Shown: positions 1-42,988, counted from the first letter of the whole stretch. The stretch is 63,599 nt of DNA, filler included, from Hausera hauseri (GCA_046269625.1; 11 parts of 11 records of this genome joined end to end with filler, not necessarily neighbours in it); one strand, 5' to 3'. Notes: a model not told the origin generated them from the sequence alone. Numbers and translations are program-made.

Positions 1-149
1 GTTAAATACAATTGATCTTCCAATGACTTTGCGCTCTGCTCCTGTCAGTTTGTACAATACATCTGCACAAATTTGAATTTTGGGCTCTCGCCTGGTTAAC
101 AGGTTTCATCCAGTATGTTACCTAAATCTCCAATTCGATATACATGGGT

Positions 150-3100
150 TTTGCCTTCTTATAATATTGATCCTTGTAGTTTTCTTGGTGATATTTAATT
201 TTTCATCCTGCTCTGATCCATGCTTCTTGTAATCTTTCCTGTAGAATTGTTGCATTATCCGGTTCTTTCATCAGTTGGGATTGCGGTGGTCTACATTCCA
301 GATCAGTTGGCATAATATCTCGTTTACCATAAAATAAAAAGAATGGTGACTCTTCAGCTGTAGTATGGGGACTTTGTCGGTAGGCATATACACAAAGTTT
401 TATATATAAATCCCAATCAGATAAGTGATCATATGCGTAACTGGATATCATAATTGAAAATTGTTTATTAAATGCTTCGACTGCGCCATGGCTTGAGAAT
501 GATAAGGTGAAGTAAATTTGTGATTGACTCCCAATATTGCTAGTACTTTTTTCATAAGTTCTCTGCAAAAATTGCTTCCTCTGTCAGATATCTGTATTGG
601 CATTCGTATTCATTGGCACTGCGTATTTAAATATTACCTCATCTACTAATCTTCTGGCCATAACTTCCGTGGTTTGATTTACCATTGGCATTGCTATTGG
701 AAATTTTGAGTGGTAATCTATTGCTGTAGGTACACATGTATTTCCTCTGGCGGTTGTCGGTAATGGACCCGCTATATCTACGCCTATGCAAACAAATGGT
801 GATGCTAAATCTGATACTGGTTTTAGTGGTGTTTTTCTTGCTTAAAAATTTCCTCTTCGTTTTGAATATACTTGACAATTTGTACACCAATCTTTCACGT
901 CATCTGCTATCTTTGGCCAATAATATTGTTGTTTAAGTCTGCCTAGCGTAGCCGTATAACTTAGGTGTCCGCCGAGTTGTCCGTCATGGTAATGTAGTAA
1001 AAGTTTTGCGCACGTGTTTTGGCACAACCATGAGTAAGCCTTCACTTTCCTAATAATAGATATTTCCCTTATCCATTTTATATTTATTTTTGCTCCCTTC
1101 TTTGTTCAGACTATTACGGATTTTACGAATTTCTTCATCCTTTGTTTGTACTTTGGCTATAGCTTCATGTGTAATTGCTATGGTCAGGAATATATTCAAC
1201 TCTTCGTTGACCTCTGCATTATCTACTTCGTCGATCATGGTCTGAATTAGGTCAATCATTTCGTAATACTCATATAGGATGTATTCGACAAACGGATACT
1301 TGTAGTCACTCTGTCTTGCATTATGCTGACTATCTCTGTTCGGTGTTTGAATAATCATACTTATTAGTTGGTCTGTATCCTTTGCGCGTTTTATTTGTGT
1401 TGCTTGGAATACATCTGGATGAACTTTCTGCGAAAAATATTCTTTTAAATCTTTCATGTCGTCATAATCGGGGTTGATGCGATCGTTATAGTCTTGATCG
1501 ATGTCATTTTCTTGAAGTCTTAATAAAAAGTCTGCATTAGCGTTTGCTTTCCCTTGTCGATATTTTATTGTCATTTCCAAATCTTAGATTTCTGCAGCCC
1601 ATTTCATTAACTTTCGACTGGTATCTCGTTGTTTCTGGTCGGTTTATAGGATTATTTCTGGTCCAGTTATGTAATATCTAAAATATTACAATGCATATAC
1701 TATTGCATAGCATTCTCGCTTCATTTTAGCCCAACTACGTTGTGTTTTGCTTAGTGTTTTGCTAAGGCATGCTATTATTCCTTCACGCGGTCTGTCAGGG
1801 ACGCATTGTCCTAAGACTGCTCATATAGCGTAACCGCTGGCATCTGTCATTAGTATATAGGGATATTTGGGGTCAGGAAATTGTAGTATTGATGATGAAT
1901 TTAGAAATTGTTTCAGAACCTCAAATGCTCGTTGGTGTGATTCCTCCCAGCTCCATGTTGTCCCTTCTTTGTTAATGCTACTAGTGGTTTAACTATACAT
2001 GCAAAATTATATACAAATTTCCTGTAATAATTGGCCATTCCTAATAGTCTTTATAACTCCTTAAGATATTTGGGTTATTTTAATTTTTTAAGTTTCTCTA
2101 CATTTCTGGAATCAGGTTATATTCCTTTACTCGACACTATGTGTCCGAGAAAGGTGACAGCTTTTTTAGCAAATTCACATATTTTCAACTTGATTTTTAA
2201 ATGAGCTTGTTTTATTCTATCAAATACTTGAGAAATATCTTTTAAGTGTTGTTCAAAGTTTTCAGAAAATATTATTACATCATCTATATACACCATACAA
2301 CATGTTACTCCTTGCAATACAAAATTCATACATCTTTGAAATATGGCAGGTCCTGCTGTCAAGCCGAAGGGCATAACGTTAAATTCCCGTAGTCCAGTTC
2401 TGGTAGAGAAGGCTGTTTTTTGCTTATCTTCTGCGACTTCGACTTGCCAAAATCCACATTGTAAATCCAAGATGGTGAATATGGCGGCATTTCTCAAGGC
2501 TGTAAGCATCTCATTTATCTTTGGTAATGGATAATTTTCCTTCTTTGTAACATTATTTACTGCTCTAAAATCTACAAAAAGTCGTTGTGCTCCGTCTTTC
2601 TTCTGTACTACTTCTACTGGGATGTCCATGTTGAGAAACTTAGTCTGATAGTACCAAGTTTCACCATTTATGATATTTGCCTATCACATTCTTTCTTCTT
2701 AACTTCGGCCATTCTATACGGATTCTGTTTAATGCGGTCGGTGTACTTTGTGATTATATGATGTTGACTAACGTTAGTTATGCCGATGTCATTATCATTC
2801 ATAGCTATAATGTCTCTATAATTGCGCGAATAATTGAAATAATTTTTTATTTGATATGGAGTTAAATCTCCGTCTTTGAATTTAATATTTTCGACTTCAA
2901 CTAAGAACGTGGCTGAGCATACCTTAGCTGGTTGTAATTGTCCTAAGTTGAGATTTTGTCGTTATCTAATTGCTTTTTATTGATACTTTCAATTAGAAAT
3001 TCTAAACATTTTATTCCTCTTGGTCCAAATAAGACATATTGCAGAATGTTATAATTTTCATTGTTATATAAATTCTGTTCAAACATGCAAGTTTGCTTAT

Positions 3101-3930
3101 GGTATTGTGGTGGTATCATTTACATCACCATCACTTTTTGTTGTGGTTCTATAATAACATCATGAGTTAACGTCATACTAATATCCTAATTTGGCAAGTT
3201 AGTCAGTTTATATCTAAGTGTTTGGTTAATAAATCCATTGAGAGACCTGAAATTTGAGACAGTACATCCATTCCTATCACCAGAGGTACTAGCAATATTT
3301 TATCGTCCACCACAAACAAGGTGATCGTGTGTAGATTACCATCAACTCTTATTTGATGTCTATTTTTCCTAAAAATTGTACTTGAGTGAAATTTGCTGTT
3401 TCTATTACAATATCACTTGGCATAATTGCTCCTTTTTGATGGTCAGTTAGGTATGAGTGTCGAATCATTGACACTGATGCACCGGTATCTAGTGGTGCCA
3501 TGGTATTTAATCCATTAAATTGTACACGGATATAGGAGTTATTTCCCCTTGTAATGGTGGTTTGTATCATAAAAATGTATTTTGTATTATTCCATGGAGT
3601 ATCCGTGGTATTATATTGTCGGAGTACGTTTGGTGGGTATGCAGTACTTGGTAAGCAGGTGTATTCATCCAAATCTCTTGCCATAGGAAGATCATGCATG
3701 AATGTGACCTTCATTTCTTTATAATCATGGTATTCCGGGAATTCATCAATAGGTTCGGACTTATAGTATGTTGGTGCTTCCGGTTCGAAGTGTTGTCGAG
3801 CTTTCTTCCTTAATAGTTTGTATTTAACTAGATACTCTTCCACTGTTAACTTAATAAAGGCTTGTAACTGTTGCTCTAATTCTGGAGTTAAACGTAATTC
3901 CTTTCTTAATTTATTAAGTTCTTTCGCATG
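150..3930 (-). pseudogene. pol: Gypsy pol: protease, reverse transcriptase, RNase H, integrase (frameshifted)
   Basis: PR LDTGASVSMI (~3490); RT VDFRAVNNVTKKENYPLP, LDLQCGFWQV, MPFGL, YIDDVIIFS (2117-2629); RNase H TDASGYAI (~1840) and YRQGKANANAD; integrase Zn finger HDGQLGGH..YYWP..CTNC (842-1045); core GAVEAFN, ESPFFLFYG. Confidence 0.93.
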
Positions 3931-5808
3931 TCAGTACATTAATACTCATTGATCCATTGAAGGCGAAGCATCTCAACATAATTTGCCATGTACAATCACG
4001 TACTTTCTTTATATTTTTTGCAGCTCCTATTTGTCTTAAATGACCACTATGGTGGTAATTAAAACATATTCCAAAAGCTCCAGATATAACATGACAAAAA
4101 ATAAGGAATTTATTCCAGAAGTCATAAAGGACCATTTTAGCTGTTCTTTCTAAATGATCAATTGGCAATAATATTCTATAATTAGGTACGGCGTCTAATC
4201 CTTTCGTAACAATATATACAAATTCTGTAATGACTTTGTCTCGGATATTCTGAAATAATACTTCTTTTATTACTGCTTCCAGGTATATCAATGAATATAA
4301 TCCACTGGTGGGAAGTTCTCTATTTATTTTAAACGTCATACTTTTATCCAGTGGTAATAATCCAATCATATGTGGTATGTTCATCATTGTTAGTTGGCGT
4401 GTTTAGTCCATCTTCCATCGTTGAGTTTAAAGGCAGGATAAAAGTCTTTATAACATGGTGCAAAGCTGATTTCAGTAGTTAAAAATAACGTTCGGGTAAT
4501 AGGGTCCACAAATCCTATTTTAATTATGTTTATATCGTTGTATTGGACCATTAATTCGTTCATGAAATTTGCTTTTGGTGATGTTACGGGAGCTACCTCT
4601 ATCGGTGAGCATTGGTGCACATGGAGTATTTTACCTTGTACTCCACCAAGTGTTCCAGGGCGATATTCCATAATTAAGGCAATATGTTCGCGGAACTGTA
4701 TAGCTAGTATCAAATCATACTGGTTCGATCTTTAAGTGATTTTACAATCTCTCAGTACCATCACGTTACAAAATTCAACTAAATCCATTTTTGCGGTGTG
4801 ATAGATATAGTCCATCTTGTTATTTGTATATAGGTACCACTTTATGTTTTCAGTTGGTAATTTTCCTGTATTTTCAAGAGTTATGTTTGTTACAAATAAA
4901 TCTTCATAAGATGTAGAGTAAACTGCATTCGATTCACAAGTCGATACTGCTCCTTTACGTGCCAGTACGATTCCATCTTTGTCACTGGATGACATTAGAG
5001 CTTTTAGGGAAATGGTTTGTTTTAAGGTTCGTGGGGTGGGTAAACTTAAATTATGGTAATATACAGGTTCTTGGTATTCGCCGTCATAATATAAATGACC
5101 TTATATATTCATACATAGATACTTTTTTAAGAAAAGCTAGTGGACATATTAAGATCGTTTTTTCCCAGACTAGTGTAGATTCTCCTAGGGTGCACACTTT
5201 GTCTGAATATGTACAGGATGGTGCAGTTAACATTTTCCCTCTGATTGCATCGAAATTTACTTTATATTCTTTAATGGTAAAGGTAATCTTTTATTTGTAC
5301 TACAGCAGATTCCGTTTCTCCATTTGTCATCATATTTTCTCCGTTACAAGCTCCACCGTATCCGGGCCATATTTTTCCGGCTGTAACTATACGTGAATAA
5401 ACTCGTTTCTCTATGCCTGCATGTATTGGCTGTTGAAAAACTACATGAAATGAATCCGTAGCTTTTCTACAATTTTCATCTGTTATTGTCACGGGTTTAG
5501 GTAGTGCTAGTGGAATAATTACTGAATTCAACGAATTATGACCGCAATTATAAGCGAATACAACTTTATTAACTTGACATTCCTTTACTTGCACTTGTTG
5601 ATAGCTGATTCTTTGATACAGGTTATAGTTGTAGGGACTTTCTTTCTTTACTGATATTGGATTTGCATTTTGCAATTTGCCTATATCCACTAGTGAAAGT
5701 CTGGCTGTTATTTCCGGTTTGGAGCAATCATAGGCTTCTAAGGCTTTTGTAGTTTTTAAGCTGCTAATAGCCATCAAATATAGTAGCAGGTGAATAATTT
5801 GTACTACC
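3914..5808 (-). pseudogene. Chuvirus-like / herpes gB-type (class III) fusion glycoprotein, env analogue, fragmented
   Basis: Signal-like VVQIIHLLLYLMAISSLKTTKA then AYDC..LSLVDIG, LYQ..VKECQV...YNCGHNS, CTYSDKVCTLGESTLVW, YTNNKMDY, PGTLGGVQGKILHVHQCSPIEV, FVDPITRTL, TSGLYS, and a C-terminal hydrophobic FWNKFLIFCHVISGAFGI/YVLITTIVVI. These motifs are colinear with chuviral glycoproteins as I recall them. Confidence 0.8.
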
Positions 5809-7156
5809 TAATCTGAGACATTGGTATCTTTGGAGTATATTAGTGTTGTAGGGTTAAATTTCTTAAGGATTTCATCTTAGCCTTCTTGTTTGGTTACCCA
5901 TTTTTTCGTTAGTTTATCCATGTGATGAGCTAAATCTCCTACTATGTGATGTAACTTGGTATCAGCCTCTGTTTGGCTTTTAAAGCTAATGCTATCAGTA
6001 GTCGGTTTTGATCACATTCCTCTAATAACTGTGTCAATGCTTTATTTAGGCCCCTTTCAGTTTATATTTCTGCAGCAATTTTGTGATTTGCGATGAGAAG
6101 TTTCTAGCGGTTTCTATTATAAACTGAAATGGTATCGTTGTAATTGTTGGTATCTTCTTGAGTTGATTTGGGTTAGATTTCTTAATTAATTGTTCAAGAA
6201 GTTTATGAATTGTTAATGTTACCTTAGGTATATCTATTTCATTTTGATACGATGTTCCTGTAGCAGAATCCTTTGTTTGTTCATTTTCATCATCACTAAT
6301 AATAAATAGTTGGAAGTTATCGTATAATATATCTTCTAATGTTTCTCGTTGTTCCTGACGCTTTTTAGACAGAGGTATTTTCTTGCTTTGTGTTTCTAGT
6401 TTTTTTTCTTCGGAATTTTCTTCATCATCACTTATGGGGTTAAATTCTCATTTTCGTGATCTTCCTCCCTTTTTCTTAGTACCAATCTGCATGGTAATCT
6501 GATGAATCTTTCTGCTAAGGAGCCAATAATCCACAATGTAGTCATTGTCAACGGCTAATCTCCCATACGGCTATCATATTACTTTCTAGATCTAATTCAT
6601 CTAACACTTTCCTTCGGAGATCGGTAAACTTAGTGAACATTCCTGCTGTTACTTCGATTACTTGTTCCCGCTTATTGGTTTTAATTTTCATACTTATAAT
6701 ATATGGTTGTTTCGACTGTGTTTTTGTCCTAGGTCTCTTACAAGAGTTTTAAGTAACTTTCTTGCTGCTGAAAAGCAGAATACGTCATCCTTTGTTAGTG
6801 GTAAGAGTAATGGTGCATATTTAGTTCGACTAGCTAGTGGTAGAGGCTCATATTGTCGTAGGGCATTCCATACTTCATTTGTCATTTGTAATTTAGTTTT
6901 AATTATTTCAGTTACGGATTCTGGAGGTTCACCGTACACTGTGAAACCAGGGGAATGTTCATTTCCGGGATATTTCTTGGTTTTTCCATTGGTAATAGCG
7001 TGAGAATGAGTTCGTCGTCTTCTAATATTTCAAACACTTCATCTTTGTCGACTACTTGTGGTTCCTTTTTGGATGTACCTGGCTGTATTGAATCCCAAAT
7101 ACTTTCGAGTAATGTCGGTCGTTGGTGTGGAATCTTAGATTGGGGAAGTGGTGCGA

Positions 7157-7880
7157 CTAATCTGTTCTTATAAGGTTCCATCCATTCTCCAGTTGGCCCT
7201 GTTCTGACGAAATCATGTGAATATTCATAAGAATCCATATTCGGATATCTTTGAGCAATTGGTTCGATTTCCGGGATCGCTCTTGCTTCAGATATTTTTC
7301 GAGTTTCCAATTTGCTTGGAAGGCTATTCGTAGTGTCCTCTGACTTTCTATTATCCATGGTATATTGTATTCCACTCGCGCAGTTTTTAAGTATTCGACT
7401 AGATATCTTTGCGTCATAATTTCTGAGTTATGACCATGATATAGATCCAATCATTTGTAAGTTCCGTTGATTTGTTCAAGATCATAAATGGCGTTTAGAT
7501 TTGTTGGATTTATTTTCAATGTATTCAATATTTCTGGCCATTGGCGTCCGATGATTACCTTTCCTGGTAAATATTTATTCATAAATTCATTTACTTATTC
7601 TTGTCCTTCAGGATTTGACCATCTACTATATTCGGTATATTTTGTGGCATCTGGTATGTTCGGATACACATAGATATTGAGAATGGTCTTTCCATCTAAG
7701 TTTCTAGCAGTGACTTGAGTAATTGCTTTCTGATCTCCTTTAGTTATGCATCTACCTGTGAATATTATTTCTCTATCCTGTGTTACAGGCTCATCTACAA
7801 ATAATATTGATGTTTCCTTAAGCAATTGTATTAAGCATAAAGGGTAGTTATTTAGGGGTTGAATTTGACAATCTCATTCG
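7157..7880 (-). pseudogene. REX4/ISG20-like DEDDh exonuclease-fold domain lacking catalytic acidic residues
   Basis: ORFs 7595-7825 and 7157-7450 share one frame with two internal stops: IIFTGRC..AITQVTARNLDGKTILNIYVYP..VNEFMNKYLPGKVIIGRQWPEILNTLKI..NAIYDL. This parallels REX4-type ALDCE..ARVSIVN..G..YDKYVKP..VAEMLKGRILVGHAL. Confidence 0.55.
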
Positions 7881-8058
7881 TAGGGATAATTAGGAAGTAT
7901 CATAGGCTCTTTGGAAACAATTACCGTTTTATTACTGATTTGTAACCGGGCTTCTCCTTGATTAATAAATATAGCACATGGCGTGTCGTTTCTTTTAATC
8001 TGAATATCGGTATTCTTTAAATAAATTTTATCAATACCTTCCATACAAATTTATCCTT

Positions 8059-8158: not shown

Positions 8159-9070
8159 AGGACATGTGACCGGGTGCATTCGAACACAAACATGGTGCAG
8201 TATATGAATGTGTAGTTAGAATTTAAATTTATCGAGCCGATTTCGAATAATATCGATGCAAAGTGCAACTGGGACAGACTCCCCATAGGTTTTTAGGTCC
8301 AAAGGAGTCAAAATTCGATAATATAATTAGCGGAGACAGATATGAAGTTGAATATGGCGATATTGAATATCTAGTCGAATATTCGAAATTCGAATATTTT
8401 CGAGCTCGAATATCGAAGTTCGAACTATTCGAAAAATCTAAAAACGGCAATCGATTCCTCATATATGAAAACCTCCTCATGCATAAAAATTATTCCATGA
8501 AAATGATCTATATAGGTACAAAATCAATATTTCGAATTAAGCAAAATGTGCATTTAAAGCCCAGTGAAGCAAAAATCAATAAATCTAATAGTGGAATTGG
8601 ATAGGAAGCCATGTATGTTGAATTAGAATATGACATCAGATATTATAATTCAAGCTCTCAAGTCACATATTTAGCTATTCGAACTCGAATATTCGATCAA
8701 GAATGCATCATTTTAAGAATCTAATGACGTCACTCAAATCCTCATTGGTGAAAATCTATAGTAAAATCTATAGTAAATCTATAGTAAAATTACATAATAA
8801 ATGCTAAGTAATTCTTATATTGATTAAGCAATTGAGGTGAATTTGAAGGTGAAGCACGCTAAAATCGATAAATGTTTAAGAACACATAGATAGGAAAGCA
8901 TATGTGGAGAATCGGAATATAATGTTAGATATTCGAATTCGAGCTTTCAAATCGAATATTTAGCTATTCGAACTCGAATATTCGGTCAAAATTGCATCAT
9001 TCGAAGAATTTAATGATGTCATTGGATTTCTCATATACGAAAACCTATGTGTAAATCGAATTTGGTGCCG
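8159..9070 (+). repeat. Polinton/Maverick terminal/subterminal repeat (left-end orientation) with internal ~290-bp tandem duplication
   Basis: Reverse-complement homolog of 41620-42670, which runs on to a ...CTACT terminus. TTAGCTATTCGAACTCGAATATTCG occurs at 8671 and 8960. Lies ~500 bp upstream of pPolB. Confidence 0.7.
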
Positions 9071-9584: not shown

Positions 9585-12508
9585 TAAAACGAGGCTCTTA
9601 TATTCAGCTTCCTGATTGGATTGAACGGAAAAAGGCATGTATCAATGTGAAAAATAATGACAACAAGTGTTTCATGAATGCCATTCTATCAAAACTCGTA
9701 CGAGATTAACATAATGCTTCTCGAGTTTATGTATATCAGAACATGAAGCATAATTATTATTTTAGTTGCATTGAATTCCGACAAGAAATAGATGACATAA
9801 AAAGATTTGATCGTATTAATCATATATCCATCAATATTTTCAGAGTGGATAAAACAGATAAATTTTATTCTTTACATATATGCAAAGAGGAATTGAAGAA
9901 CCATAGGAATCTGTTCCTACTAAATGATGGGAAAAAGAAACATTATGTTTGGCGCAAGAACTTAAGTCGTTTAGTAACTTCCCAAATAACAAAAAATGAG
10001 CAGAATTGAGATCTGCAAAAGATGTTTTTTACATTTCAATGGTGAATTTGCTGTGGAGAAGTTAAAGGAGTATAAAATTTATTGCAATAGCAATAACTGT
10101 ATAAGAACTGAATTTCCTAAGAAAGACAATATAGAATTCGAAGAGGTTGAAAAACATCAGAAAGTACCAATTGTTGTTTATTGTGACTTTGGGGCTATTC
10201 TCAGACCAGTACGGAGCTGCAATCAGAATCAACAACAGAGTAGTACGACAGCATACCAAGATCATGAGCTGTCGTCATATTGCATGTATGCCAAAGGACT
10301 GGATAGTAAACCATTTTTATTCAGAGGTTCAGGTGCAGCAGCTCATTTTATGAAACGACTTAAAGACATGGCTCGTAGGATTAGAGATATGTTGTAACAG
10401 CATAAGGATACAATGAGCATGTCGAGGAAACAAGAAAATAAATGGCGCAAGGCAGCAGCATGTTACTTGTGCTCCAAATCATTCACCAAGGAGAATCAAA
10501 AAGTTAGGGGTCACTGCCATTTTACAGACACATATCCGGGGACGGCATGCAACAATTACAATCTACGTTGCAAAACATGCACATATGTGACTGTAGTGTT
10601 CCATAATCTCAGTGGATATAACAGCCACTTCATAATCCAAGAAATAGGCAGCACTGATGGCAGTACTGAAGTGATCCCTGATAGTGAGGAAAAATACATC
10701 ACTTTCACTAAGCATGTTGGTAAAGTCCGACTTTGCTTCATAGACTACTTTCGTTTCATGTCGTCTTCACTGGATAGTTTAGTGAAAAACATCCATGTAG
10801 AAGAAATCAAGGAGACGAAGCGGTTCTTTCCCACTACATTTGACCTAGTCAAGATGAAAAGAGTATTTCCTTATGACTACATAACTTCATGGAAAACACT
10901 GGATAAGGCCTCATTACCACCCAATTATGGCTTTTACAGCCAGTTGTCGGACTGCGATATCAGTGATGAGGCCTGCCACATGCTCAAAACGTCTTGAGTG
11001 CATTCCAATGCAAAACAATAGGGGAATACAGTGATATTTACCTCAAGACGAATGTGTTGTTGCTGATGGATATCTTTAAGAGTTTCAGGGATGTTACAAT
11101 GAAGAGCCATGCATTGGATCCGGCTTATTTCTTTACAGATTCAGGAATGAGTTGGCCTGCAATGCTACGCTATACTGATATTAGGCTGCAGATCATTAAG
11201 GATTATGATATGATTTTTATAATCGAGAGAGGCATTAGAGGCAAAATATGCCAGGCTATTCATAGTTATGGTGAGGCCAACAACAAGTATATAGCAGATT
11301 ATAACTCATCGAAAAAATCCTCGTATATCATATACCTGGATGCAAACAATCCATTGCCATGTAATAACTTCAAGTGGGTTGAGCATCCTGAAAACATTCC
11401 TATACTGGACCTGGATCCTACTGGAGATACGGGATATATACTGGAGGTGGATATGAAATATCCGGCTTCCATCTACACAATGCATGAACAGCTGCCTTTC
11501 CTTCCGGAGAACAAAAAGCCGTCGAATGGACATGTCAAAAAGTTACTATGCCATCTTGAAAATCGGGAAAGATATGTCGTCCATTACATAAATCTACAAC
11601 AGGCTACCAGAAATGGGCTCAGAGTCATCAAGATCCGTAGGGCCCTGCAGTTCAGTCAGTTCATATGGTTGCAGCTATACATCGACTTCAACAGAAAGTT
11701 GAGGGCTGAGGCTAAAAACGACATTGAGAAGGATCAATTTAAGCTGTATAATAACAGCGTTTTTGGCAAGACCATGGAGAATATTTGTAACAGGATTGAC
11801 ATTGGGTTGGTCTCTGACTGGAAGCGAGCAAAGAAGTTCATTGCCAAGCCTAACATTCGCAGCAGCACCATATATTCAGAGAATTTGGTAGGTATCCATA
11901 TGCTGAAAACAACATTATTATTCAATAAGTCCATATATGCGGGTATGGCAATACTAGACCTGTCAAAGAACTTGATGTATGACTTCCACTACAACATCAT
12001 GGTCCCTAAGTTCAAGTCCATGCAACTGATGCATACTGATACTGATAGTTTCATCTATCAGATCCATACAGATAATATTTATGAGGACTTTGCCAAATTG
12101 GCCCAACACATGGATACTTCAGACTATCCGAAGGATCATTCCAACTATTCAATTGCCAACAAAAAAGTCCTAGGGAAATTCAAAGACAAGGTGAATGGAG
12201 CAATAATTTCACGATTTCTGGCTCTTAGGTCTAAAATGTACGCCTTAGATGTATGTGGCCAGATCAAAAAGAGAGCCAAGGGAGTTCAAAGGACTACCTT
12301 GGCCAAGAATATCAGCTTTGAGGATTATTCTAAAGTGCTGCATGTGCAGACTCACATGATATTATAGATGCGAATAATCCACTCTAGGAATCATAAGATA
12401 CAAACAGTAACATTGCAGAAAAACAGCCCAGATTGGATGGATGACAAGAGACGGATCTTAGAAGATGGAATCAGCACACTGCCTCATGGACATGTTTCAT
12501 TACTGTAA
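9585..12508 (+). pseudogene. Polinton/Maverick protein-primed DNA polymerase B (frameshifted)
   Basis: INVKNNDNKCF; HYVWRKNLSRL; VYCDF; CYLC..VRGHCHFT..GTACNNYNL; FHNLSGYNSH (ExoII); FPYDY; YLDANN (motif A, partly deleted); KLYNNSVFGKT (B); HTDTDS (C); KRAKGV; DDKR..TLPHGH. Confidence 0.93.
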
Positions 12509-30153: not shown

Positions 30154-31453
30154 CACAGTATGGCAATAAAGTTCCCCAACTTGTTTTATTATTTCACAAG
30201 GAAAAATAACACAATAATGCTAACTGCAGTGAATAAATCTAGGATGTCTTGTGCATGTCATGAAAAAATGTTATCTTTGCATCATTAGTCATGCATGAGT
30301 TAATCATAATTTCATTTATTGTGATTTTGTGTTATGTTTAGCTTGTAATATGGAACAAAAAGCAGTAATAAAATTTTGTTTTAATGTACAAAAATCGGCC
30401 ACACAAACTTTTGACATGCTGGAGGAAGCATATGAAGATAAAGCTATGTCCAGATCAAGTACTTTTGAATGGTATAAAAGATTCCAAAATGATCGAGAAT
30501 CTTTAGAGGATGATGAAAGATCTGGCGGTCCTTCAACTAATCTAGATGATATGGCGAACTCTGTGCGTGCTTTTCTTGCAGAAGACACCATTTTGACATT
30601 CCGTGAAATGAGTGAATGTTTGAAAATGAACAAGGGAAGCATTCTATTAATAATTCATGAGGATTTGAACAAACGGAAGACTTTTTCTCGGCTTGTTCCT
30701 CACTTTTCAACCATGAAACAAAAGAATCCGTGAGTGTCCTACTGCTGCGATTTGGTGGAAACAACTGACACTTCAGCGAATTTTTTGAATTCAATCGTTA
30801 CTGGTGATGCATCTTGGTGTTTCAAATACGATCCACAGACAAAGCGTCAATCATAAGCCTGGCTTAGTCATGACGAGTCACGACTACAAAGGTTCGAATA
30901 CAAAAATCGCGAGTCAAAATGATGCATATTGCTTTCTTGATGGAAAAGGAATTATGCATCATGAATTTGTTCCAGAGTGGCAAACGGTGAACGGACAGTT
31001 CCAGTAATGAAGCGTCTAATGCAGCACATCACATGTGCCAGATCTGATTTCATCCGTTCTGATGAATGGTTTTTACTTCATGATAACAGACCGGCGCACA
31101 CACCCACATATGTATTGCATTATTTAGCAAAAAAAAACAAGTTACCGTACTTAATCATCCTCTTTATTCACTAGAATTGGCACCAGCCGTTTTTTTATAT
31201 TTCCAAAGTTGAAACTCCATCTTAAATTTCGAATGTTTGATGATGTTGATGCCATTAAAACAACTGTGACAAGGGAATTAAAGGAAATTTCGGAAAACTA
31301 GTTTTCTGATAGCCTTCGGTCGGTGTAACGTCGTGAAAAGTTGTGTATGGAACGAGGAGGGGAGTATGCAGAAATTTAAGTAAATTAAGATTTCGGAATG
31401 TAATTGTTTCATGTTTCATTCACACAGACCGGGAACTTTATTGCCATACTGTG
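30154..31453 (+). mobile_element. Full-length mariner (1300 bp), defective transposase
   Basis: Perfect TIRs CACAGTATGGCAATAAAGTTCCC / GGGAACTTTATTGCCATACTGTG, TA duplication on both sides; KAVIKFCF..EWYKRF..RLVPH, IVTGDASWCFKYDP, LLHDNRPAH, YSLELAP. Confidence 0.95.
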
Positions 31454-34757: not shown

Positions 34758-35494
34758 AACAGCACAGCTGCATACTATTCGTTAGTCACTCCCAGGGAAT
34801 CTAATGCTCTCAACTGGGCCTCAAGACTATCATATAACTGAGCAGCAGTCTGTATTTTATCATTCTTCAAAACTAAATTCAATAGTTCACGAACATAATA
34901 TTCAATTAAAAATTCATCTTTACCAAATCTAGATTTTAAAAGCTCAATCGCTTTCTCATAGTTTTCTTTTGAAGGTGGAAACCCTTCTAATAATTTATAA
35001 GCCGGAGAATCTGGCTTCATACTTTGAAACAGATAATCAAATTTATCCTCTGGGGTAAGGCTGTCATCTTCGTGAATTTTAGAAAACTGCGCCCAAAATC
35101 CAATCCAGCCTTTAAAATCCCCATCGTATTTTTTGAGCTCAATTTTTGGTAAACGAACTTGTAATTTACGAGCGTTAACCACAACGTGATTTGTTGAAGT
35201 TTCAGGATTCTTCTCTAGATTATTTATTAGATCCCTTATCTTATAAAATTTAATGGAGTAGTCACCAGCTTTAATCATCTCATCCTCTATTTCTTCATCT
35301 GGTATATCTTTCGTGACAAGCAGCTCCGAATAAATCTTCTCATCAACAGCCTTTAATTTTTCATATTTATCTGTTAACGATGCAAATGGTACTGATATTT
35401 CAGCTCTATCTTTTATTTCCTTGCCCAAGAATTCAGTCAAATTATTACATTCTCGGGTGAAAACCGAACGTAGAATACGTCGATCCATAATCAC
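34758..35494 (-). pseudogene. gag: BEL/Pao gag, 5' part (DUF1759-type)
   Basis: VRLPKIELKKYDGDFKGWIGFWAQFSKIHED..EDKFDYLFQS..NYEKAIELLKSRFG; premature stop at 34775; starts just after the PBS. Confidence 0.9.
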
Positions 35495-35548
35495 GTTTTA
35501 CTTCTAAATCGAAACTAAAAGAAACAATTTACTTCTAATATAAACAGG

Positions 35549-35566
35549 GTCCTGTCGCGGACGCCA
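35549..35566 (-). promoter_or_regulatory. Primer-binding site, tRNA-Arg-like
   Basis: TGGCGTCCGCGACAGGAC begins 2 nt after the LTR-terminal CA and is close to the complement of the tRNA-Arg(UCG) 3' end. Confidence 0.75.
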
Positions 35567-35568
35567 GA

Positions 35569-35792
35569 TGTGGCGAACTGGTTCCAAATGAATTAATACC
35601 AATTCGAGAAAAACATAATCATATTTATTTAGCTGAAAATAATTCACAATTTAACATCGTTCTTTTTAACAGAATCTGCCGATGAGTCGTAGCTCGTTCT
35701 AAAATCAAAACATTAAGAGTGTTGCCATTCGGCGGGAAACAAATATGTGGCAATTCAGATACATGGGGAATAAATAAACAGTATTTCCAACA
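35569..35792 (-). repeat. BEL/Pao LTR (224 bp) between pol of one copy and gag of the next
   Basis: On the minus strand: PPT GGTGGGGAGAA, then TGTTGG...AATAAA...GCCACA, then the PBS. Confidence 0.85.
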
Positions 35793-35878
35793 TTCTCCCC
35801 ACCTTGCAAAATTCTAATTTTGCAATACTTACCAAAATCTTTAAAAATTGTAAAAATAAAATTTAAAAGTCACAGAGT

Positions 35879-38656
35879 CTATAAAGTCAGTTTTCTGGGA
35901 GGACGAACTTCTCTGCCTACACGAGTCTTATAAGTGGTCTTTGTACTAGGCTCGTTACGTCGTGAAGACTTCATAACTCGATTCATCTGCGGTGTTGACT
36001 TTTCTTCCCCAGGTTTCTTGAGATCAAAAGGAATTGTGGTTGATTTAGGATCCAGTTCAATCGGAAATAAACGCTGGACAGGTCTCAGTAGATATCCTGA
36101 TGATGTTTTTAATTTTGCAAGACGTACAATATCATCTTTGCCAGGAAAGAGTTCAACTACTCTAGCTAACATCCAGTCTATACGTTTCTTATCTTCAGAT
36201 CCGATTAACACGATGTCATTCACCTTCACTGATTTCGTTTGATCCCTGGGAGTGCTACGAAGAAAGCCCAAATATTCTCTTTTGAATCGACTTCTAAGTC
36301 CATCCCTAACTCGTTGTAAGTATTTCCATCTTTCTACTAAACTGAAATTTTGAATTTCATCAAGATCGGATACATCGTTATTAGTTAAACTTTGGAGAAA
36401 CATAGATGGTTGCAAAGGTGTTAAATCACTTCCATCTTCTGAAATGTATGTCAAGGGTCTGTTATTCATCAAACTTTCACATTCGCAGAGAAGCGTTAAA
36501 AACTCTTCATAATCTAAACAGGCATGGCCTAAGTTCTTTCGAAGGAGATCTTTCAATATTCTTATTAACCTCTCCCAAAAACCTCCCCACCATGACGCCG
36601 TAGGAGGATTAAATTTCCATTTCAATTTTTTCAAACTACATTTCTTCTCAATTTCAGTCCAGTCTAGTTGATTCATGGCTTTATTCAGACCAACAAAATT
36701 AGTTCCATTGTCCGAATAGATAACATCGACACGACCTCTTCTGGCAACAAATCTCCTAAGAGCTTCCAAGAATGATCCAGAGGTCAGAGAAGTAACTAAT
36801 TCCAAATGAACTGCCCTAAAAACGGCACATGTAAAAATTACAATCCAGGCCTTCTTTCTTTCCTTTAAATAAACTGGGCCTGCTAGATCTACGCCGGTAA
36901 TTTGGAATGTGTTGGACATTTTAACTCTATCTTCAGGGAGAGGAGGAAAAGGAACTTCAAAAGCCTTCGCTCTGCTTCGCTGACACGTAACACACCTTTT
37001 CACAATAGATCGTACAGTCTTTCTCCCCTGAAGAATCCAAATTCTTTCTCTAATGATCATCAAAAGCGTTTGAGTTCCAACATGATTATATTTCAGATGA
37101 AGTTGTTCGATCATTCGTTCCACAATTACATTTTTAGAAGGTAGTATTATAGGAAATGTATATTCATGTGTATCTTCATTATCCACAACTCGAGATTTCA
37201 TGCGCAAAATATCATCTTTGTCTGTAAAAATTTGAAGATTTTTCAGATCAATCTTTCTTTGCGTGTCAGTAAAAGCATCCTTTTGAATTAAGCAAAATAA
37301 ATTTTTCTCCGCCTTCTCAAACTCTTCAACTGATATATCAGGGTAATTTTTACTTCGGCGGCAAGCAGGTCTAAATCTTAACATCCAAGCAACAGTTCTT
37401 ACAATCATTGTATATTTAGAAAATCTTGAAGCAAGTTTAGTGAGGATCTCTTCACCTACTGTAGTAATTGCTGACACAACTGTACGCCGTCTCTCCTTGT
37501 TAATTTCTTCCAAGTCAGAAATAGAGTCGTTCGAAGGCCAGTTTTCGGGAGGCTCTTTCAAGAAAGTTGGACCTGTCCACCAATGAGACTTCAAAAGTTG
37601 TAATGGTGAACATCCTCTCGACAGTATATCAGCTGGATTTAGAATACTTGGAACGTGTTTCCAACATCCGGTCTTGCTGTGATCTTGTATTTCCCTTACT
37701 CTATTTTCAACAAACACGGACCAGCTATTTCTCTTTTTCAACCATGCTAAAACTACAGAAGAGTCTGACCAAAAGTATTTAGTCAGTTCTACACTCTTTA
37801 AACATTTAAGTGCCAATTGATGTAGTCTAACTCCAAGAAGTGCGGCCATCAGTTCGAGCCGAGGTAAAGTAATCTCTTTCAGAGGTGCAACTCGTGATTT
37901 AGCCAATATAAGATCTAAATATACTTCATCATTTTCCTCTGTTCTTAAAAATATGCAAGCACCATACGCAGATTTGCTGGCATCACAGAAGACGTGTAAA
38001 GAGCTTGTAGAATTAAGGTGAATTCTTCTGGGAATTCGGCAATCATTCAAATGGTGTATTTCAGCAGACCATTTTCTAAATTTTCTTTGTATCTCTTCGG
38101 GCAGCTCGTCGTCCCAGTCAGATTTCAACTTCCATGATTTCTGTAAAATGATCTTAGGAATTAAAACGGCAGGCGCAGTGAAACCCACTGGATCAAATAT
38201 TCTCTCAATACGAGAGAGCACCATGCGTCTGGTACAAGGTTCACTCAGGGGTATTATTTTACATCCAAATTCATCTGATGGGCGATACCATTGAAGACCC
38301 AAAATATTGTCTGCACATTCATTAGCATCTAGGCTACTTATCCAACCTCTAAGGTTAAATCCGGCTGAAGACATTAAAATTGTAGCTTCTTTAATAAAAC
38401 TCTCCACCTCTTTGTCATGAGATACACCAGTTAGACAATTATCCATATAAAATGTACCCTTCAGTTTTTGGAGATTTTAACTGTATGTTCAGGAGGATTT
38501 TCAATTAAGTGGTTCAAGCAAGATGAGAGTAAAAATGGACTGCTACAAACTCCGAAAACTACTCTGCAATGGCGTAATTCGATCACCTTTTCCCTTTTCC
38601 ACCACAGGAAACGAAGAAAATCTCTGTCATTGGGATCTACCTCGATCTGCAAAAAG
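35879..38656 (-). pseudogene. pol: BEL/Pao pol (RT C-part, RNase H, integrase), one frameshift near 38465, 5' truncated
   Basis: AFLQIEV..RDFLRFLW..RVVFGVCSSPFLL, FYMDNC; HVFCDASKSAYG, LPRLEL, WSDS, NPADILSRG; HLKYNH..CVTC; GVDLAGP, YSDNGTNF, WGGFWERL. The 855-aa part is open. Confidence 0.95.
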
Positions 38657-41269: not shown

Positions 41270-42988
41270 ATACATAAATTTCTCCGCGCCAAATTTGAAA
41301 TCTCATTAAGGTTTTCATATATGGGAAATCTATTGAGCTCGTCAGGTTCTTCGAATAACGTACGCTTTATCGATTTTTTCACTTTAGATCGATAATTATT
41401 CGATTTTAAATAATGTATTCGAATATGTAACACCAGATTCAGATTCACCATATATTGTTTCCTATCTAGATGCACTATTAGATTTATTGATTTCAGTGTG
41501 CTTAACCTCCAATTTCACTGTCAATTGCACAATGGAAATAAGCACCGTTTATTTACGTAGTATTTTTTATGTACTTCTTACTTGTCATTAAACCTTGTTT
41601 TAATACACCACAGTGCACTGTATCGCGCCAATATTGATTGCCCTATAGGTTTTCGCACATGGAGAATCGATTAAGGCAATTAGATTCTTCGAATAATTCA
41701 TCCTTGACCGAATATTCGAGTTCGAATAGCTAAATATTCGACTTGGAAGCTTGAATTCGAATATCTAAATTCATATTCCAATTCCGCACATACGCTTTTC
41801 TATCCATGTACGCTTAAATATTTATTGATTTCCGCTTCATTGCACTTTAAATTCGCATTTTGCTTAATTAGAAATATTGATTTTGAATCTATATAGTACA
41901 TTTTAATGACATACTTTTTATGCACATTGGGATTTTTGAATACGAGGAATCGATTTCCGCTGTTAAATTTTTCGAATAGTTCGAACTTCGATTTTTGAGT
42001 TCAAAAATCTTCGAATTTCGAACTTTTGACTCGATATTCGAGTTCGGCATGCTCTATTTCCTATCTGTCTCCGCTCAATGTTAGGTCGAATTTTGCTTCC
42101 CTACGCTTAAATAACATGTCAAATATATAGCCCATTTGCACTTTGGATAGATACGAATCAATAACTAATCAATAAATTAAAATTCTAACTGCACATTCAT
42201 ATACTACATCATGTTTCCTTCCTATTGCTCCAGATCATATATCCCAATCGTCCATATTGGAAATATCTGAAATTCGATATTATTGATTTTTTTACATTTG
42301 CACACATGTTTTTGCACTGCACGCCATATATGAGGATGGATCTCGATGTGCTCCATCTAACTGCACTTGACCCAGATCAATTCCATCAATCCTACGCTGC
42401 ACAATTCAAAAAGTGTGTAAAGTAAAAAGTGCTCCTGCACACCGATCAATAAACACGACACAATCGAATGGTGCACTGATTGAAAGCACATTGTCTACTG
42501 TACACACCAGTATATGTGCCATTTTGAGATTATTGATTTAAAATTTATAGCGGAAAGGCCTGTGGCGGTTCTGTCCCACTTCGAATTATTCGAAACCCAA
42601 TTAATCGATTTAAATTCTAACTACACATTCACATACAACATCAAGTGCACTACCGATTGCACCCGGTGCCGTTCCCCAATAATCAATATTGGGAATATCT
42701 GAAATCCGACATTATTGATTTTTGCACACTTGCACATGTGCTGCGCACCTGTACTGTGTACCAATCGATGCACTATCAATAAGCAGTTTGTCCCGATCGA
42801 TTCGACAAACACTGCACTGTGCAGCGATCGATTTGTGAAATGTGCAAAAGAGCCCTTAGTAACGGTGACTAGCGGCATCGTCGCCTAGCACTCTACCGAT
42901 CGATAGTGCTCCGTGTGCACTATCGATATATGGATGCGCACGCCACCCGGGGAGAGGGGTGAGGGAGAATCCGCAATTTTCCCCTACT
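41270..42988 (+). repeat. Polinton/Maverick right terminal inverted repeat with internal duplications
   Basis: Reverse-complement homolog of 8159-9070; internal duplication AATTCTAACT(A/G)CACATTCA at ~42180 and ~42613; GC-rich tip ending TTTTCCCCTACT (AGTAG terminus). Confidence 0.7.

Follow-up and report, generated by a model that had tools for sequence, protein, structure and literature searches.

We identified a Ty3/gypsy element with a gB-type envelope gene located ahead of pol, which likely belongs to the Burro-like group. The active family of this element likely made one polyprotein with the order Gag-accessory-Ubl-Bcl-2-like-signal-G-tail-PR-RT-RH-IN, a reading to which we assign a probability of roughly 85%. 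The window, by which we mean the whole 63,599-nucleotide stretch of Hausera hauseri DNA that was analysed, is a string of short contigs joined with spacers, and the element sits on the minus strand of the first contig (1-8058). The contig ends inside the element, which runs on past the window start. Read along the minus strand, an accessory/Ubl/Bcl-2-like region is followed by G, protease, RT, RNase H and integrase (Table 1), and G leads to the protease without a spacer or LTR between them. No repeat of LTR size was found in contig 1-8058, nor was any repeat or spacer found at the G-pol junction. The copy is decayed, carrying many stops and frameshifts and no continuous frame of its own. The env-before-pol gypsy layout in the window is genuine and well supported.

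An earlier note on this DNA had placed the glycoprotein 5' of protease-RT-RNase H-integrase on the same strand, and we found the same arrangement, with pieces of the PF24664 family followed by the pol domains on the minus strand. Its range for the element (2100..7900) does not reach RNase H and integrase, which lie at about 130-1955. Similarly, G is present where the note had put it (3914-5808), but the G-like reading ends near 3934-3941 rather than at 3914.

Table 1. Features of the element in the window, in their order along the minus strand.
Feature	Position	Strand	Evidence and remarks
Accessory domain, possibly a degenerate DEDDh/RNase T-like exonuclease	7300..7790	minus	59% identical to P0001 561-813; lead only
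Ubiquitin-like domain (broken)	6511..6712	minus	P0001/P0016 profile match
Bcl-2-like domain (broken), directly upstream of G signal segment	5853..6135	minus	position by profile
Internal signal-like hydrophobic segment of G	5742..5807	minus	no initiator Met; read in frame from upstream in P0001
gB/chuvirus-type (class III) envelope glycoprotein	3934..5741	minus	PF24664; 52-66% identity to P0001; broken by stops and frameshifts
Membrane anchor of G	near 4040-4120	minus	
Open linker from G to protease, likely the cytoplasmic tail of G	3529..3930	minus	no stop; first Met at codon 72
Aspartic protease	3250..3528	minus	Pfam Asp_protease_2 E 0.015 (weak); tblastn to L001 protease E 5e-5; frameshift near 3351
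Pre-RT linker and reverse transcriptase	1955..2955	minus	RVT_1 E 2e-30
RNase H (broken)	1500..1955	minus	tblastn to RNase H region of P0008, P0013, P0151
Integrase (broken)	130..1105	minus	Integrase_H2C2 E 4e-17, rve E 0.03; tblastn

The Monjiviricetes fusion family PF24664 is matched colinearly by four ORF pieces located between 5807 and 3917, which cover profile positions 5-172 (E 9e-17), 251-340 (E 0.002), 349-442 (E 3e-6) and 453-562 (E 2e-5). Between 8056 and 3941 the window aligns colinearly with its closest relative, P0001 (1963 aa, 67% identical). The G part retrieved 797 matches in a full HMMER search, 150 of which were listed; a word-index search that used the G part of P0001 as query found nothing beyond P0001 itself, and a viral-contig scan found no relatives. 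The G of P0003, which is 28% identical to P0001, was modelled from a 100-row alignment with a mean pLDDT of 82.5. This model matches herpesvirus gB in the PDB (best E 2e-13) and, among viral models, Monjiviricetes glycoproteins including chu-like ones (best E 3e-43). HSV gB is also recovered by sequence with the G family profile (E 0.001). The fold of P0016, obtained from a four-row alignment, is poor outside G (mean pLDDT 43.8), and its listed matches are class III fusogens only. The window G is thus predicted to be a class III fusogen by family, as the earlier note had proposed, with the fold taken from the model of a relative.

A stop at 5808-5810 stands directly before the signal-like segment. 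The peptides quoted for this segment in the earlier note, and the missing Met in front of it, were found again. A hydrophobic peak lies at the corresponding place in five intact proteins, and in intact relatives G begins with a hydrophobic peak and ends with a strong one.

The pol domains follow the order PR-RT-RH-IN, as in Ty3/gypsy (Metaviridae), and the RT matches are gypsy-type pol proteins, one of them named Ty3 Gag-Pol. No Peptidase_A17 or DUF5641 (Pao-type) domain was found in the element, and its RT-RNaseH and H2C2 integrase are of the gypsy type. The eight best matches to the window RT among 129 fetched RT proteins are all from elements in which G comes first (53-58% identity). An RT phylogeny, suggested in the earlier note, was built on a longer stretch from 45 of the 129 rows, namely all 10 G-first rows, the window, and 34 of 56 thinned others; P0152 was called G-first from its cluster and not from its own sequence. 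In this tree all 11 G-first rows, the window included, form one group (98/92), within which the window RT has a long branch and is sister to eight G-first rows (98/87). The window had no resolved position in the initial, larger tree, a quick search of 126 rows on a shorter stretch.

Several intact relatives (L001:2-10282, L002:97-11208, P0151, P0007 and P0005) have 2 to 7 tandem protease domains. The same set carries extra hydrophobic signal-plus-anchor modules after the integrase, and L001 has one more inside the protease region. P0038, perhaps an internally deleted element, is a 797-aa ORF in which an RNase H domain directly follows G. A full G-PR-RT-RH-IN polyprotein, P0008, is annotated in a Flavobacteriaceae metagenome-assembled genome and likely derives from a mis-binned animal contig.

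The region upstream of G holds three candidate domains. For the accessory domain, residues 650-815 of P0001 have an atlas score of 0.90 to RNase_T and arenavirus nucleoprotein clusters. However, a pairwise comparison of this domain with a related exonuclease did not rise above 200 shuffles, and the exonuclease likeness is consequently a lead only. In L002 and L001 an RNase T-type exonuclease (E 0.001 in L002) is encoded by its own ORF further downstream (L002:12085-13473 and L001:10617-11264), whereas the window family may carry a degenerate exonuclease inside the polyprotein. Further upstream, at 7800-8056 (minus), is a seemingly beta-rich stretch that is conserved with P0001 and that by eye may be cupin/AlkB-like.

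The Pfam ubiquitin family is matched in P0016 (E 0.031) and L002 (E 0.018), in both cases below the curated cut-off. P0001 is a close relative, so the P0001/P0016 profile match only maps the position of the Ubl in the window. A profile of four relatives matches Bcl-xL over the BH1-BH2 region (best E 0.0086), and 59 of the 60 PDB rows listed are Bcl-2 family members. Pfam Bcl-2 is found in three of the four profile members, weakly (best E 0.00096, below cut-off), and the Bcl-2-like domain is also present in L001 (E 2e-19) and L002 (E 2e-6), both of which lie outside the four-relative profile. The BH1 motif of the domain is altered. In P0016 the region upstream of G folded poorly (pLDDT under 60). 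An atlas search for the Bcl-2-like part gave nothing useful (best 0.76), and P0001 alone retrieved from the PDB a single weak match to a death-domain protein (E 1.1). A Ubi/SUMO-like domain followed by a BCL-2-like domain is accordingly predicted upstream of env from matches that are below Pfam cut-offs but agree across relatives. The "accessory" part that the earlier note had proposed ahead of G is in frame in relatives, but the note had overlooked the Ubl and Bcl-2-like domains within that region.

The earlier note had considered this architecture unusual; as a discovery it is not, since it has already been described for planarian Burro (PMC6431247) and, in the main text of PMC13524379, for GAG-ENV-POL elements in three phyla. 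Burro and GYPSM1 are giant gypsy-like LTR retrotransposons of planarians with one ORF of about 4900-5100 aa, which encodes gag, a Ubi/SUMO-like domain, a BCL-2-like domain, an env related to mononegavirus fusion proteins, and then PR-RT-RH-IN (PMC6431247). The in-frame env between gag and pol has been in print since 2019, and decayed Burro copies with stops and frameshifts are also known (PMC6431247). The window element has the same order of Ubl, Bcl-2-like domain, env and PR-RT-RH-IN, a likeness that we draw by layout and description. As in Burro, relatives (L002, P0013 and others) carry env within one ORF, in frame with gag before it and pol after it. The MATH/TRAF, BIR, ankyrin and Smc-like extra domains vary between Burro elements (PMC6431247). 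MATH/TRAF, BIR and ankyrin domains were not found in P0001, ankyrin repeats occur in P0151, and the far 5' part of the element lies outside the window, which has instead a possible degenerate exonuclease in frame. Burro also has a dUTPase-like domain between PR and RT; the corresponding linker of the window element is conserved with relatives and has no Pfam or PDB dUTPase match. One protease is seen in the window element, in contrast to the 2-7 of several relatives.

Certain endogenous retroviruses of nematodes reportedly have a continuous gag-env-pro-pol. These elements (Sacco et al. 2022, cited in the main text of PMC13524379) represent a metavirus with env before pol, a feature that they share with the window element, and were reported from nematodes. 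The main text of PMC13524379 describes GAG-ENV-POL errantiviruses with an HSV/gB-type ENV in Nematoda, Bryozoa and Platyhelminthes, which, like the window element, combine a gypsy pol with a gB-type class III env before pol. That set comprises intact copies only, as described there, whereas the window copy has many stops and frameshifts. The words 'Bcl', 'ubiquitin', 'polyprotein' and 'fused' are absent from the main text of that paper, the supplements of which may list ORF fusions, and in the literature searched only PMC6431247 links Bcl-2 with such elements. Mosquito BEL/Pao elements with a chuvirus-like glycoprotein (Dezordi 2020, cited in the main text of PMC13524379) share with the window G the broad family PF24664 but have a BEL/Pao pol. 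In P0117, the one BEL-type G match that we found, G follows the BEL C-terminal domain. We file the window element as Burro-like by layout, and it is a divergent, decayed addition to an already described arrangement.

It is conceivable that this lineage had one ORF but acquired env before pol, and similar accessory domains, independently of planarian Burro. GAG-ENV-POL elements are reported not to be monophyletic in the main text of PMC13524379, the window RT has a long branch and is placed as sister to the other eight, and the MATH, BIR and ankyrin domains of Burro were not seen in P0001. However, the same unusual order of Ubl, Bcl-2, mononegavirus-like env and protease occurs in Burro (PMC6431247), and P0151, a member of the group, has ankyrin repeats and a 4844-aa ORF that is close to the 4873 aa of Burro. 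We consider a separate gain unlikely.

Evidence for a single polyprotein comes mainly from the relatives. P0001 has no stop from its RS-rich N-terminal part through the accessory region into G, so that G is in this protein an internal part of a longer chain. Eleven of the 16 best G relatives (one of them weakly) continue in frame into the protease, five of these 11 reaching RT and four the integrase. Of the other five, three break off within G, P0001 finishes where G does and P0003 soon afterwards; like P0003, P0017 ends shortly after G without a protease. The window is also colinear by tblastn with L001 and L002, two loci from a metagenome scan. L002 is one 3703-aa ORF that extends from a gag with two CCHC zinc knuckles through G to the integrase, and L001 is a 3426-aa ORF from upstream of G through the integrase, open at its 5' end. 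P0013 runs from gag knuckle to integrase with env in frame between them.

In the window the pol frame is open from 3930, as the earlier note had stated, and extends for 147 codons to the DTG motif of the protease, a length matched by 1 in 20000 random sequences of equal composition. A spacer similar to the 3529-3930 linker is present in relatives. A junction test scored the pol frame best for only nine of 14 relatives, with low scores, which speaks less clearly for one ORF. The note had also joined the tail of G to pol by a single 1-nt shift. The last step, near 3964, is indeed one base, but further local frame changes occur in the tail at 4039-4065 and two in-frame stops (3946-3948 and 3931-3933) lie between this last shift and 3930. 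Because the window copy is itself broken, we infer its former continuity from these relatives.

Such features could also reflect recoding, in which the gene order is the same but a programmed stop or shift at the junction terminates G, with readthrough or frameshift yielding Pol at a lower rate. Recoding via a conserved readthrough stop was our initial reading of the junction. The one-base final step from G to pol fits this explanation, as does P0001, which ends exactly at the codon of the window stop 3931-3933, where a stop and a contig end are both possible. In addition, Gag, Env and Pol would necessarily be made in equal amounts from a single ORF. Against recoding, the frame continues uninterrupted through the junction in 11 of the 16 best relatives and in both loci, and related copies mostly lack the stop. 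The latter come from a single run, X1, which may be the source sample and contributes 8151 contig pieces on 3300-6100; most pieces are 80-95% alike, which indicates many copies. Within stop 3931-3933, another letter is present in 6425 of 6487 of the X1 depth (~99%), which lowered the initial reading, and within stop 5808-5810 in 9737 of 9874 (~99%). The X1 indels listed coincide with the frame changes of the window against P0001, plus those at 3964 and 3351. Less favourably for one ORF, stop 3946-3948 is not among the 40 of 755 X1 rows listed, and the indel at 3964 has only 17 of 148 depth on three contigs, though the other known frameshifts are similarly low. Recoding is accordingly a minor rival of low probability, and one ORF is the best and a well-supported prediction for the downstream junction.

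That an endogenised chuvirus glycoprotein or a BEL/Pao env landed by chance in front of an unrelated gypsy pol is extremely improbable: invertebrate genomes and BEL/Pao elements often contain chuvirus-like G fragments, according to the main text of PMC13524379, and a BEL/Pao element lies elsewhere in the window, but G and RT independently point to the same proteins, no spacer or repeat is present at the junction, and colinearity with single-ORF relatives from G to integrase largely refutes it. The findings that the earlier note had named as contrary to its proposal (G lacking or located after the integrase, an LTR at the junction, a conserved stop, no class III match) were not encountered. Its accessory-signal-G-TM-PR-RT-RH-IN polyprotein is supported by the intact relatives, the RT tree and the fold search.

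Other mobile elements are present in the window. In a BEL/Pao retrotransposon at 34775-38476 (minus), a pol piece with Peptidase_A17 and DUF5641 stays open for 865 aa. Fragments of a broken DNA polymerase B at 9700-12400 (plus) likely represent a Polinton-type element (DNA_pol_B_2, E 0.0002), and a mariner-type transposase fragment (HTH_48) is found at 30299-30733 (plus). A dispersed repeat is common to 8304-9068 and 41309-42100, on two contigs, in opposite orientations and 72-77% alike.

The hydrophobic peaks at the start and end of G in intact relatives would fit a cytosolic Gag-accessory part, a lumenal G and a cytosolic Pol. Translation of the polyprotein would begin beyond the contig end, in gag. 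G would be directed into the ER lumen by the internal hydrophobic segment, with a signal peptidase cut behind the segment, and the anchor of G would bring the chain back to the cytosol, where the element protease could free itself, RT-RH and IN from the tail of G. The leftover signal segment may keep the upstream piece membrane-bound until Gag is released by the protease. G might serve in cell entry or cell-to-cell spread, and the Bcl-2-like and Ubl domains might modulate host cell death or ubiquitin signalling.

In P0001 the signal segment is located about 20 residues behind the Bcl-2-like domain. Cellular Bcl-2 proteins have a tail anchor at the corresponding place behind the domain, and the leftover segment could act as such an anchor for the Bcl-2-like domain of the element. 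We put forward, tentatively and as a doubtful extension of the polyprotein reading, that the element represents a high-copy, deeply branching lineage of Burro-like elements, possibly one outside flatworms, whose envelope signal peptide also serves as tail anchor for a captured Bcl-2-like protein. If true, one polyprotein would deliver a fusogen and a membrane-bound cell-death regulator together, and the retroelement would have its own anti-apoptotic gene.

Neither PMC6431247 nor the main text of PMC13524379 contains a test of polyprotein processing, of membrane fusion by G or of a Bcl-2-like role, and the intact natural relatives L002, L001 and P0008 make such questions easier to approach than the broken window copy does. 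The element adds a divergent member, together with a set of intact relatives, to the little-studied envelope-bearing retroelements whose whole gene set would be expressed as one membrane-spanning polyprotein.
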